Source: an uncultured Planctomycetota bacterium
Lineage (GTDB): Bacteria; Planctomycetota; Planctomycetia; Isosphaerales; Isosphaeraceae
Assembly (NCBI GenBank): GCA_963737655.1
Contig: CAVTTN010000002.1
Coordinates: 6,112,001-6,176,000 of the forward strand
Reading direction: 5' to 3'
Length of the DNA: 64,000 nt
Each line of letters begins with the position of its first letter. Position 1 is the first letter of the stretch. The notes under the pieces were generated by a model, which was not told where the DNA came from, made no database searches, and saw only the letters and a list, made by a program, of their open reading frames with translations. The position numbers and the translations under genes are program-made. This document shows, piece after piece, positions 11,141-64,000 of this stretch.

Positions 11141-13477
11141 CTATCGGGGGTCCGGGATCGCCCGTGCCGCGTCGCGGAGCGAGAGGATCTCGCGATTCCG
11201 GGCGGCGGCCGAGAAGCTCGGGTCGATGCGAAGGGCCCGCGAGTAGGCGAGGCGGGCCTGGTCGAACTTGCCGAGCCCTTCGAGGGCCAGGGCGTGGTTG
11301 AAGGCGCACTCCGGGCTCGTCGGCGAGAGCGCCTCGCAGACGCGGAAGGCGGCGGCGGCCTCCTGGAAGCGTCCCAGGCGGTAGGCGCAGAGGCCCAGGT
11401 GGAAGTTCGGCCAGAAGTCCTGGGGGCGTTCCTCAAGGGCCCGCTCGAACTGAGCAAGGGCCTCCACGAGCCGGCCGGATCTCAGTTCGAAGCGGCCGAG
11501 GTCGTCGTGTTCCCGGGCGTTCCGCGGAGGGCCGACGTCCTCGGCGGCGACCCCTCCGAGCTCGGCGGCCAGCGCGCGGGCCAGGCGGCTCAACGAGGGG
11601 CTGGGGCCGCAGGTCTTGCGGGCTTCCTCGACCGTGGTCAGGGCCTCTTTCAGGGCGAGCGGCCGGTCGTCGGCCGTCGTCCGGCGGGCCTGGGCGTCGA
11701 TCCCGACGAGGGCGAGCTCCCGCAAGTCGTCGCGGACCCGATCGGCCAGGCCCGGGACGGCCCGGCCTCTCGCCCAGTCCATCAGCGGCTGGCGATCGTC
11801 CCAGATCGCCGAGAAATGCTCGTCGAGGGCCCGGGCGGCCTCCTCGTCGGGGGCCTCGGCGCCGAACCGGAACCGGATGAGGTCGGCGAGGCGGTGGAGT
11901 TCGTCGGCCTTCTGGCCGATCCGGGCGGTTCGGAGTTCCTCGCGGACTTCCGCCTCGGCCCTCCCCTGCCCGACCAGCCCTCGGACCCGCTTCAGACCAC
12001 GATCGAGGATCGCGACGGCCTCGCCGTGCCGACCCTCGGCGATCCGGGCCCGGCCGGAGGCGAGCGCCTCGTCCTTGTCGCGGACCCTCTGGCGATACTC
12101 GGCCGAGGCGAGGGTCAGCGCGACCAGGAGGCCGCCGAAACCGCCCGCGAGCGTCAGGCCCCGGGCGAACGACGACGGGCTCCGCCTCCGCCACTTCCGC
12201 CATCGCTCGCGGAGGCTCCGGTTCGGCACGCCCCGCAAGGGCAAATCGCCGAGGTGCCGGCGGAGGTCGTCGGCCACGGCGGAGGCGTCGGGGTAGCGGT
12301 CGGCCGGATCGTCGGCCAGGCAGCGGCCGATCAGGTCGCCGAGGCCGACCGACCCGCCCGGCCCGGGCCTCGTCGCGATCGGCGAACCTCGGCCGACCCG
12401 CCCCGGGCCGTCCAGGGACTCGACCAGGAGGAGGCCCAGGGCGTGGAGGTCGGCCCGATGGTCGATCGCCCGCTCGGTCGGGTCGCCGAGGGTCGCGGCG
12501 CGGAAGGCGGCTTCCTGCTCCGGGGCCATCCAGCCGGGGGTCCCTCCGAGCCTCCCTCGGACGATCGCCCTGGCCGCGACGGGGTGGCGGGCCAGGTGGA
12601 AATCCAGGAGCAGGGGCAGGCCGTCGGCGGCGATCAGGACGTTCGACGGCTTCAGGTCCATGTGGACCAGCCCTCGCGAGTGGGCCGAGTGCAGGGCGTC
12701 GGCCATGCACGCGGCGATCCAGCAAACGGCCTGCTCCCAGGTCGCCTCGCGGAGGTAGCGGCGGCACGGGCCGTCGGTCACGGGCGGCTCGGCGGATCGG
12801 GGTTGGGAGCGGTCGAGAGCGCTGAGCAGGTCCGCCCCTCGTCGTCGAGCCGGCGGGATCGTCGCGACCTCGGCGAGGAGGCGGTCGAGGCTCGCGCCGC
12901 CGAGATACGGCATGCAAAGCCCCCGGAGCCGCCTCTCGGGGAAGGTTTGCTCGGAGAACAACGGGAGGATGTGGGTGTTCTGGAGCCGGGCCAGGGCGAG
13001 GTGCTCGTCCTGGTCGGCCGGCTGGAACTTGACGACCACGAGGCGATCGGCCAGGGCGGGCTCGCGGGCCAGGTACGTCCGGCCGGAGGCCCCCCGGCCG
13101 AGCTCTTCGAGCAGGAGGAACGGGCCGATCTCCTCGCCGACCTCGGGCAGGGTCGCCGAATGGGTCGTGGCTTCGAGGAAGCGGTCGAAGTCCAGGAGGA
13201 CGGCCAGCTCGGAGCGGAACTTCGGGAATCGGGCGAGGACCTCGCGGGTCTCGGGCGCGTGGCCGGCCTCTCGTCGCGAGAGGACCTCCTCGTAGATCAG
13301 GCGGACGAGGGCCTCGGGGTCGCGGTCGGCATTCTCGGCGATCAGGCCCTCCAGGGGGGCGAGGTCCCCGAGGGATCGGCGCCCGGCCAGGTCGTCGAGG
13401 CGGTCGCGGACCCAGGTCGAGGCCGAGGACGGCCCTCCCGGGCTCGGGGACTCGGAGAGGAACGGGTCGGACGACAT
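11141..13477 (-). CDS. Hanks-type Ser/Thr kinase with a TM segment and C-terminal TPRs
   Basis: 'LGRGASG', 'VVK', 'HMDLKPSN', 'DFH', 'GTPGWMAPE'; TPR-like helices at the C-terminus. Confidence 0.9.
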   Translation of the reverse strand: MSSDPFLSESPSPGGPSSASTWVRDRLDDLAGRRSLGDLAPLEGLIAENADRDPEALVRLIYEEVLSRREAGHAPETREVLARFPKFRSELAVLLDFDRFLEATTHSATLPEVGEEIGPFLLLEELGRGASGRTYLAREPALADRLVVVKFQPADQDEHLALARLQNTHILPLFSEQTFPERRLRGLCMPYLGGASLDRLLAEVATIPPARRRGADLLSALDRSQPRSAEPPVTDGPCRRYLREATWEQAVCWIAACMADALHSAHSRGLVHMDLKPSNVLIAADGLPLLLDFHLARHPVAARAIVRGRLGGTPGWMAPEQEAAFRAATLGDPTERAIDHRADLHALGLLLVESLDGPGRVGRGSPIATRPGPGGSVGLGDLIGRCLADDPADRYPDASAVADDLRRHLGDLPLRGVPNRSLRERWRKWRRRSPSSFARGLTLAGGFGGLLVALTLASAEYRQRVRDKDEALASGRARIAEGRHGEAVAILDRGLKRVRGLVGQGRAEAEVREELRTARIGQKADELHRLADLIRFRFGAEAPDEEAARALDEHFSAIWDDRQPLMDWARGRAVPGLADRVRDDLRELALVGIDAQARRTTADDRPLALKEALTTVEEARKTCGPSPSLSRLARALAAELGGVAAEDVGPPRNAREHDDLGRFELRSGRLVEALAQFERALEERPQDFWPNFHLGLCAYRLGRFQEAAAAFRVCEALSPTSPECAFNHALALEGLGKFDQARLAYSRALRIDPSFSAAARNREILSLRDAARAIPDPR

Positions 13478-61531: not shown

Positions 61532-61548
61532 TCCAAGGAGAAGTTCCT

Positions 61549-61716
61549 GTAGGGTGCATGAAATGCACCGTTGTGTAGGGTGCATGAAATGCACCAAGCC
61601 CGCGGGGGTTCTCGGCCGCCTTCCTCGTCCTCGTGGGGGCCGTCTCAAGCGCAGGTTGAGGGAATCGGTAGACGGCCCTCGGCCGTCGCGATGTTGGTGC
61701 ATTGCATGCACCCGAC
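61549..61716. repeat. Cluster of GTAG-type REP elements (third family): two direct copies and one inverted copy
   Basis: GTAGGGTGCATGAAATGCACC at 61549 and 61575; inverted degenerate copy TTGGTGCATTGCATGCACCCGAC at 61694-61716. Confidence 0.8.
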
Positions 61717-61751
61717 GGGGTCATTCCCCAGGATGCCCCACAAGAAACCCC

Positions 61752-62945: not shown

Positions 62946-62974
62946 TTGCATGCGTTCGGCGACACCATTAGAAG
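62946..62974 (+). promoter_or_regulatory. Putative sigma70-like promoter of ncRNA copy 1
   Basis: TTGCAT-N17-TAGAAG; hexamers and spacing are conserved in copy 2 while the spacer sequence diverges. Confidence 0.55.
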
Positions 62975-62998: not shown

Positions 62999-63252
62999 GG
63001 GTCCGGGAGGACAGGTCTAGCTCGGTGCCCTGCACCGGGGCGGCGTTGCGCCGCCCGAGCGTTCGGCCGGTCATGCGTCACAACGAAGGCTGTTTCAGAC
63101 TCGCTTCTCGGGGGAATTACCCCACCGGGGCCTGCGGGTCTGGAGCAACCCCGCCGATCGGGGTTCCGCAGGCCCCGGTGGGGTAATTCCCCCGGCGAGT
63201 CCGAGAGCCTTCGATGTCCCAGGTCTTGAAGTAGAGCGGCCTCCCCGACCCC
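62999..63252 (+). ncRNA. Retron msr-msd-like ncRNA, copy 1
   Basis: Outer imperfect IR GGGTCCGGGAGG..TCTA / TAGA..CCTCCCCGACCC; candidate branch G63020; stem-loops 63023-63037 and 63038-63056; long hairpin 63084-63213 with a perfect 29-bp stem. Confidence 0.7.
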
Positions 63253-63261
63253 GATTCCGTG

Positions 63262-63296
63262 CGAGGCGGGCCGGACTCTCCCTCCGGCCCGCCTCG
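63262..63296 (+). terminator. GC-rich 14-bp hairpin downstream of ncRNA copy 1 (no U-tract; terminator or processing stem)
   Basis: CGAGGCGGGCCGGA-CTCTCCC-TCCGGCCCGCCTCG. Confidence 0.4.
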
Positions 63297-63353
63297 TCTC
63301 GGGTCGATTTTCGACGAGTCGAGATGAAGTTTGACGAAATTCGGACGGGGCCC

Positions 63354-63382
63354 TTGCATGCGTGTCCCGGCATCATTAGAAG
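63354..63382 (+). promoter_or_regulatory. Putative sigma70-like promoter of ncRNA copy 2
   Basis: TTGCAT-N17-TAGAAG, 408 bp after the first. Confidence 0.55.
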
Positions 63383-63405
63383 AGTCCTGCGCTCGACGAG
63401 AGCAA

Positions 63406-63660
63406 GGGGTCCGGGAGGAGAGGTCTAGCTCGGTGCCCTGCACCGGGGCGGCGTTGCGCCGCCCGAGCGTTCGGCCGGTCATGCGTCACAACGAAGGCTG
63501 TTTCAGACTCGCTGACCGGGGTGATCACGACCCCTACGGCGGCGGGTCTGGAGCAACCCCGCCGATCGGGGTTCCGCCGCCGTAGGGGTCGTGATCACCC
63601 CGGCGAGTCCGAGAGCCTTCGATGTCCCAGGTCTTGAAGTAGAGCGACCTCCCCGACCCC
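63406..63660 (+). ncRNA. Retron msr-msd-like ncRNA, copy 2
   Basis: Same architecture as copy 1 (offset 408 bp); candidate branch G63428; perfect 30-bp stem 63516-63545/63574-63603 with a different sequence. Confidence 0.7.
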
Positions 63661-63667
63661 GATTCGT

Positions 63668-63706
63668 CGCGGGGCGGGCCGGACTCTCCCTCCGGCCCGC
63701 CTCGCG
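63668..63706 (+). terminator. GC-rich hairpin downstream of ncRNA copy 2
   Basis: CGCGGGGCGGGCCGGA-CTCTCCC-TCCGGCCCGCCTCGCG (one G-T pair). Confidence 0.4.
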
Positions 63707-63758
63707 TCGGGTCGAACTGCCCGACACGTCTCCCGACCTTCGAGGCGAGGAACCGGCC

Positions 63759-64000
63759 GTGAGCACCTCGATCCGCCTGGACGAAGTCCGTCGGGCCCTG
63801 GAGGCGAGGGACCCGGCCCTGATCGACCTCGTCGTCGAGCTCGCCGGGTCGAGCGACCCGGAGCCCGAGACCCCGATCCGCGAGGGCGCGCCGACCTTCG
63901 CGAAATTCCTGGCCGAGACCCGCTCCCAGGACTTCCGCCGCAAGCCCCGACCCGAGCAGGGCATCGAGCGCCAGGCGAAGCTCAAGGCCCTGGAATCGCC
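63759..64000 (+). CDS. 5' part of a gene running off the window; candidate retron-associated protein
   Basis: GAGG RBS, GTG at 63759, open to the end: MSTSIRLDEVRRALEARDPALIDLVVELAGSSDPEPETPIREGAPTFAKFLAETRSQDFRRKPRPEQGIERQAKLKALES..; absent from the ORF track. Confidence 0.7.
   Translation, partial: MSTSIRLDEVRRALEARDPALIDLVVELAGSSDPEPETPIREGAPTFAKFLAETRSQDFRRKPRPEQGIERQAKLKALES

Follow-up and report, generated by a model that had tools for sequence, protein, structure and literature searches.

Variable duplex stems in the predicted msr-msd RNAs of a planctomycete type XIII retron

Two RNA units and a retron operon at the locus

The window analysed here is a 64,000-nucleotide stretch of contig CAVTTN010000002.1 (positions 6,112,001 to 6,176,000, forward strand) from an uncultured planctomycete of the family Isosphaeraceae (GCA_963737655.1). 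Near its 3' end lie two tandem units on the plus strand, spaced 408 nt apart, which are the only such units of the source genome. Copy 1 opens with a promoter-like element at 62946–62974 (TTGCAT, 17 nt, TAGAAG), followed by an a1 arm at 63005–63021 ending in TAGC, with the predicted branching G at 63020, and by an msr of two short hairpins at 63023–63056, assigned from the fold and from conservation in alignment A2. The msd, the predicted msDNA template, extends over 63081–63231 with approximate ends, as judged from the fold and from covariation in alignment A4, and comprises lower stems, a main stem and a top. Within it, the variable 29-bp stem (63109–63137 with 63166–63194) and the constant 28-nt top (63138–63165) occupy 63109–63194. 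The unit closes with an a2 arm at 63232–63245, identified from its sequence and its pairing with a1, and a terminator-like hairpin at 63252–63306, which has a weak U tail and was missed by a consensus scan. Copy 2 has a promoter-like element at 63354–63382, an RNA running from a1 to a2 at 63413–63653 by its fold (predicted branching G at 63428), a variable stem of 30 bp at 63516–63603 that bears the same 28-nt top, and a terminator-like hairpin at 63660–63714. The window also contains, at 61548–61734, an intergenic repeat of palindromic, REP-like character that includes inverted copies and a tandem duplication of 22 nt and is unrelated to the retron units.

Four co-oriented genes follow on the 3' side of the units and run past the window end. 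The first, whose 5' end lies at 63759–64000 (+, PADLOC), encodes a 1077-residue HEAT-ARM_XIII protein (P0001); beyond the window come a WD40/HEAT gene, SWIM_XIII (P0002) and RT_XIII (P0003, G000:C2:6187182-6188510, best PADLOC model, E 1.4e-159). The sequence-only reading had taken the pair for retron RNAs, and this identity is borne out by the PADLOC names RT_XIII, SWIM_XIII and twice HEAT-ARM_XIII downstream of the two units. The RT carries the motifs NAAIH, YADD and ITG, corresponding to the NAXXH, YADD and VTG-like motifs of clade-10 retrons, the linked SWIM zinc-finger protein (cluster 114) is present with E 1.2e-197 and a Pfam SWIM match, and two HEAT/ARM genes (PDLC02921 and PDLC02919) stand ahead of it. 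The general msr-msd anatomy is also found, with a1/a2 pairing, a priming G in TAGC, msr hairpins and a long msd stem. The contiguity of RNA and RT gene that is expected of a retron is lacking here, the RT start lying about 11.5 kb downstream of copy 2 with three genes between, and Rfam returned no family for the RNA at gathering score, only generic hairpin look-alikes. Taken together, homology, anatomy and co-occurrence show, at the level of sequence comparison, that the two units belong to a type XIII retron as its msr-msd RNAs. The WD40/HEAT gene (L001:8989-15309, past the window end) contains two frame changes, near 12380 and 12850, and is matched by PADLOC in pieces spanning 4–1067 and 1224–1968 of 1972, reflecting either an assembly error or decay of this retron. 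The genome holds two more RT-domain matches (G000:C2:719484-720116 and G000:C2:4064750-4064977).

The SWIM protein, modelled from an alignment (pLDDT 78), is predicted to adopt a two-domain PCNA/9-1-1 clamp fold at residues 50–350, which match PCNA with Z 15.4 and an rmsd of 2.9 over 217 aligned residues; the top rows of a Foldseek search are all clamps. The clamp-like part is followed in the model by a winged helix at residues 370–432 and a WGR-like end (Z 11.2). The protein is thus predicted to resemble a PCNA-like clamp, a shared fold that by itself shows no function.

Comparison of the two window hairpins confirmed that each 5' arm is the exact reverse complement of its 3' arm (63109–63137 and 63166–63194 in copy 1, 63517–63545 and 63574–63602 in copy 2), that 11 positions distinguish the 5' arms, every one of them compensated and inside the 20-nt core, and that the 28-nt tops are identical (0/28 differences). 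Two further statements of the earlier reading needed adjustment. The stems were said to be equal in length, which is true of the 29 bp common to both, but copy 2 adds the pair 63516/63603 to give 30 bp; the msr region, said to be identical, is nearly so, with 1/101 differences between a1 and the lower stem. The remaining differences are distributed over the promoter spacer (6/12 sites), the leader (4/29), the 4-nt bulge before the stem (3/4), the 3' part (1/56) and the terminator-like hairpin (8/60), and those in the bulge, promoter spacer and terminator-like hairpin indicate that the duplication is not very recent. Both RNAs fold far more stably than shuffled sequences (z −8.1 for copy 1 and −8.5 for copy 2), as does the predicted copy 1 cDNA when folded as DNA (z −11.9). 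The stem of a genome of the same genus (G081) has 6 and 7 changes from the window copies, which are themselves 11 apart; this intermediate indicates that stepwise change is possible in the lineage, and the sequences of the window pair taken alone are compatible with stepwise change too.

Distribution and form of the units in relatives

The named relatives carrying the system belong to the Isosphaeraceae or are planctomycetes of Gemmataceae type. In the window's own family the RNA occurs in 28/121 genomes and a close RT in 28/121, with both in 25; in the sister family f5 the figures are 38/143, 38/143 and 36, with one RT at E<=1e-120 per genome. These counts are not independent since the genomes are related. 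Multi-copy genomes also hold weaker related RTs (36–56% identity). Seventeen of the 28 own-family genomes have a single copy and 11 have two to three tandem copies, and the first operon gene lies directly 3' of the RNA in 27/30 loci. The expansion into many payloads that the earlier reading envisaged was found in relatives: in five near-complete genomes of genus g57 and allies, the covariance model R1 gave 37, 23, 13, 14 and 8 matches, corresponding to 34, 20, 13, 12 and 7 distinct units once antisense, partial and weak rows were removed. These dispersed copies are whole transcription units sited between unrelated genes. TAGC is exact in 125/152 units, a1/a2 pairing is higher within units (8.5/12) than between units (6.7/12), and a promoter-like spaced motif precedes 101/152 units compared with 3/152 control windows, while a sigma-70 and terminator consensus scan of the units gave no matches. 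Contigs from two presumed-RNA runs span only the RNA part of L194, and such contigs cannot establish expression.

Outside these families, a Nannocystis genome (G629) has the same operon and a tandem pair of units with different stems about 9 Mb away, no RNA being found within 6 kb upstream of the operon; among 150 further genomes of its phylum the RNA occurs in 9, with no operon gene within 1.5 kb. This separation of RNA and operon suggests that the RNA is probably used in trans. The same genome contains a second type XIII locus of the order SWIM-RNA-RT, whose adjacent msr-msd has a similar plan (L352:8280-8505). The system was found in 0/150 other genomes of a wider phylum sample. A search for viral copies yielded no SWIM relative and one 3' RNA fragment, and the matches listed from a metagenome pattern scan are mostly chance. 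A 20-mer match in L037 was likewise dismissed as chance, the genome concerned having true copies elsewhere.

Several arrangements were observed alongside the intact units. Fragments of 25–45 nt from the RNA 3' part, to which the predicted msDNA 5' end is complementary, stand alone at gene junctions in L041, L048, L074, L170, L181 and L031; L041 and L170 have two each, and one such fragment lies in a viral contig. They are possibly captured msDNA or conversion relics. Copies in L275, L284, L277 and L306 are divergent to an ORF resembling the terminase large subunit in translation-based comparison, a fragment without Pfam match; L275 and L284 have 853 bp at 96% in common, yet differ at 15/24 core sites. 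In L283, L294 and L306, copies are interspersed with SMI1/KNR4 and Imm11 immunity genes.

The proposal that the stem functions as a DNA duplex is backed in relatives by covariation of the main helix and by the spectrum of mismatches. Stem length is 29–30 bp in 157/182 units, counted with 18 partial matches skipped. After 10 decayed or chimeric units were dropped, 140 of the remaining 172 are perfectly paired, with 39 mismatches in 5000 cells, and nearly all stem sequences are different. In the f5 alignment A4 (25 sequences), 27/29 pairs of the main helix changed on both sides and 0 on one side only, and 99.4% of 725 cells are paired. Read on the RNA strand, A·C mismatches of the stem (22) outnumber G·U (6, p 0.004), as opposed to the terminator-like hairpins (G·U 59, A·C 13) and a1/a2 (G·U 40, A·C 26) of the same units. 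An A·C on the RNA corresponds to a G·T wobble in the reverse transcript, which points to selection on the cDNA duplex. In this respect the stems are unlike msd stems in general, which PMC6868368 describes as mismatched. The stem is capped by an 8–9-nt bulge with invariant CTGG..CAAC, and a position pair of the top hairpin (A4 columns 69/79) is unpaired in 25/25 sequences; the unpaired position and the bulge are likely a protein-recognition element. Units with arms from different stems (L177, L206 and L208) or with the stem deleted (L096 and L204) were also seen and are either misassemblies or exchange intermediates.

Variation of the stem sequences has the character of replacement. Only 2/772 within-genome pairs differ at <=5/24 core sites, and ten paralog pairs whose scaffolds share at least 85% identity have stems that differ at >=11/24 (random 16.9). 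Eighteen syntenic pairs with flanks 84–96% identical, drawn from three or four genomes with loci shared and two pairs decayed, fall into nine with 0–1 stem changes (flanks 85–96% identical) and nine with 12–18, with none between. In three cases an identical stem and top occur at different loci, with promoter, msr, a1/a2 and terminator following the locus, and the exchanged tract approximates the msd. Stems that are either unchanged or wholly replaced, together with identical stems at different loci, indicate that the hairpin behaves as a cassette open to exchange. Cassette swaps in relatives uphold the division into a fixed scaffold and an interchangeable payload that had been proposed from the window alone, with the correction that the payload is about 24–25 of the 29 bp and not 20. 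Gradual drift, the pattern that would have spoken against this proposal, is not seen in the sister family, but change in the window's own family can be stepwise. Judged from the sequences, the msd-sized tract fits conversion mediated by msDNA and equally ordinary conversion between the most conserved flanks. Tandem copies differ at 8–17 core sites (13 arrays), and the stem of the operon-linked copy differs even between close species. An 18–19-bp block of the copy 1 stem recurs in f5 stems, inverted at the same place, and a similar theme is seen in another phylum.

The cores are rich in internal palindromes of at least 5 bp, which occur in 59% of 165 cores compared with 28% of dinucleotide shuffles, in 70% of cores of the f5-type group, and in 34% (shuffles 22%) of the group with window-type flanks (n=50, including 7 units of genome G429). 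Patterns of the form X-reverse X-X amount to 5.2% in f5 compared with 0.4%, and this excess may mean that the palindromes are traces left by fold-back mutagenesis and do not mark sites under selection. No enrichment was seen for fold-back from the constant flanks, and a shared GGG-N-CCC motif was not above shuffles.

Targets and possible roles of the stems

The sequence-only reading had viewed the stems as decoy or sensor sites and had suggested searching for their sequences elsewhere. In the source genome the window cores have 0 matches within 2 mismatches, and in viral contigs, searched with the two window cores of the 165, exact matches were no more frequent than chance (11 for a 16-nt and 1 for a 17-nt pattern, not exceeding a rough chance estimate). 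Six related viral matches that might have marked a stem as a CRISPR-like spacer proved to be the coding end of an unrelated phage gene. The methylation idea tied to the GATC (Dam) site of copy 2 finds no backing: GATC occurs 25 times compared with 18.7±3.5 in shuffles, CCWGG is not enriched, and GANTC and GGNCC are depleted. Patterns for a host operator matched at 15 and about 95 scattered places outside the units, for which the control was unsuitable, and one pattern matched nowhere. The cores have slightly more 12–14-mers in common with the source genome than shuffles do. Searches that came out blank or at chance count against a role of the stems as bait.

Such a bait role is nonetheless the leading reading, because methylation of msDNA sets off the retron Ec86 and msDNA degradation sets off Sen2, as reviewed in PMC12409349, and by this analogy we consider the chances about even that the stems act as baits for foreign DNA-acting proteins. 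Each unit would be a separately transcribed msr-msd RNA, which the single close RT of the genome would copy, in trans, into msDNA. The stem would work as DNA, its length of 29–30 bp and full pairing fixed, as the comparison of units shows, probably because the retron proteins, with the predicted PCNA-like clamp domain among them, grip a B-form duplex of defined length whatever its sequence. As a cassette it would be replaced wholesale and copied between loci in tracts approximating the reverse-transcribed part, as in the three cases above, so that a cell would carry a set of different, palindrome-rich duplexes, of which the window would be the two-member form. A foreign sequence-specific binder, methylase or nuclease hitting any one duplex would disturb the complex and trip the system, and since any stem could do so, more copies would widen the sensed range. 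Counting against this model, 17/28 own-family genomes keep one copy. A stronger version appears rather doubtful to us: an evolving repertoire in which one RT and one clamp/HEAT machine may be loaded with any of dozens of dispersed RNAs, their palindromic duplexes made by fold-back, spread between loci by msDNA in a natural form of retron recombineering, and selected as each baits a different foreign DNA-binding protein. If true, it would amount to an inherited sensor library that keeps diversifying and picks up proteins through the DNA sites they recognise, instead of nucleic acids through base pairing.

The bait reading has its most serious competitor in a stem that is a structural spacer only, a perfect 29-bp DNA duplex being needed for which any sequence serves; we hold this to be distinctly possible, though short of probable. 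Turnover would then be fast, with template switching at hairpins and fold-back generating palindromes, arm-to-arm correction keeping the pairing, and the conserved flanks inviting gene conversion, while extra copies would raise the msDNA dose or be neutral or selfish passengers of the RT. The X-rcX-X excess in the sister family, the unmatched-arm, stem-deleted or decayed units (10/182 dropped; L096, L204), the lack of targets for the window cores in host and viral contigs, the stepwise change of own-family stems and the hitch-hiking suggested by copies adjoining terminase-like and immunity genes are all in line with it, and the predicted clamp-like fold would suit binding that is blind to sequence. 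Conversion, however, should homogenise the stems, yet only 2/772 within-genome pairs are alike, and nine syntenic pairs hold the stem to 0–1 change with flanks of 85–96% identity. The recurrence of one block inverted across families, with a similar theme in another phylum, and the retention of promoter-like elements in 101/152 units are also hard to reconcile with a spacer of arbitrary sequence.

Housekeeping decoys, in which the stems titrate dimeric regulators or repair proteins of the host and the HEAT, WGR and clamp parts serve chromosome maintenance or development, seem improbable. The palindromes do look operator-like, the predicted WGR-like, winged-helix and clamp domains would suit such a role, and cores and host genome have the slight 12–14-mer excess in common; PMC7736814 notes vertical inheritance of type XIII, and mismatched msDNA can sequester MutS according to PMC6868368. 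Set against this, the neighbours of 54 dispersed copies show no regulator pattern, motif searches led to scattered, coding-like matches, the operon-linked copy differs between close species, and presence is patchy (28/121 and 38/143). That the units are not retron templates at all, and instead form an independent structured RNA or a palindromic mobile repeat ahead of the operon, is very hard to credit. The 11.5 kb to the RT, the unlinked RNAs of the Nannocystis genome and of 10 loci of its phylum, and the missing Rfam family would allow it, but the RNA co-occurs tightly with the RT (25 of 28 and 28; 36 of 38 and 38), has the first operon gene directly 3' in 27/30 loci, contains TAGC, a1/a2, two msr hairpins and a long msd, shows a DNA-type mismatch spectrum, and is similar in plan to the RNA just before the second type XIII RT (L352).

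Relation to known systems

Type XIII is the class in which msDNA was first found. It corresponds to RT clade 10, with Mx162, Sa163, Mx65 and Ne144 (Mestre et al. 2020, PMC7736814), and is already known from Planctomycetota (PMC13712802); no defence function of the type is shown in the literature covered. Retrons are usually treated as one RT with one adjacent RNA. PMC7736814 defines them with a contiguous ncRNA and makes no mention of copies in doing so, although its supplement may list such RNAs, and the census in bioRxiv 2024.01.25.577267 looked for RNA within 500 bp of RTs, a search radius in which the RNAs described here would be missed. The openly available papers covered contain no natural multi-copy or dispersed msr-msd set. 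What is new is therefore a natural set of many different stems of the same length per single close RT, type XIII itself being known. Up to 34 templates, acting in trans as we infer, and a swappable duplex of fixed length would change the picture of one RT and one RNA; the variable stems offer ready-made probes for the type XIII trigger. The family would also supply a natural RT scaffold able to take up any duplex of 25 bp as payload, and it may include natural examples of gene conversion driven by msDNA.

Compared with type XIII as described in PMC7736814, the system has in common the RT with N-terminal extension, the SWIM protein, the two HEAT/ARM genes and the msr-msd plan with TAGC (the common priming context in PMC6868368), short msr hairpins, a long msd stem and a1/a2. 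It differs in that the RNA lies 11.5 kb away from the RT or is not linked to it, carries promoter-like and terminator-like elements of its own, and is present as 2–3 tandem or as many as 34 dispersed copies whose stems differ. With Ec86 (Eco1) and Sen2 it shares an msDNA duplex that foreign DNA-modifying enzymes can hit, but those retrons have one RNA per RT, small toxin effectors and a shown function (PMC12409349), whereas here there are many RNAs, HEAT/clamp effectors of megadalton scale and a candidate trigger role suggested by analogy. Engineered retron arrays and protein-binding retron DNA (bioRxiv 2023.07.17.549397 and 2023.09.27.556556) are alike in combining one RT with several ncRNAs and in displaying protein-binding DNA on the msd stem. 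The engineered arrays are synthetic, whereas the units described here are natural, fixed in length and swapped from one chromosomal locus to another. CRISPR arrays and DGR cassettes likewise place a variable payload of fixed length in a constant scaffold, several per cell. Here the payload pairs with itself to form a duplex, the two window cores matched neither a protospacer nor a template, every unit comes with a promoter-like element of its own, and Cas1/Cas2 and Avd are absent. REP/BIME and other dispersed palindromic repeats are similarly intergenic, often behind convergent genes, and rich in hairpins, but in the present units the constant parts make up a retron scaffold, it is the hairpin that varies, and presence tracks one RT.
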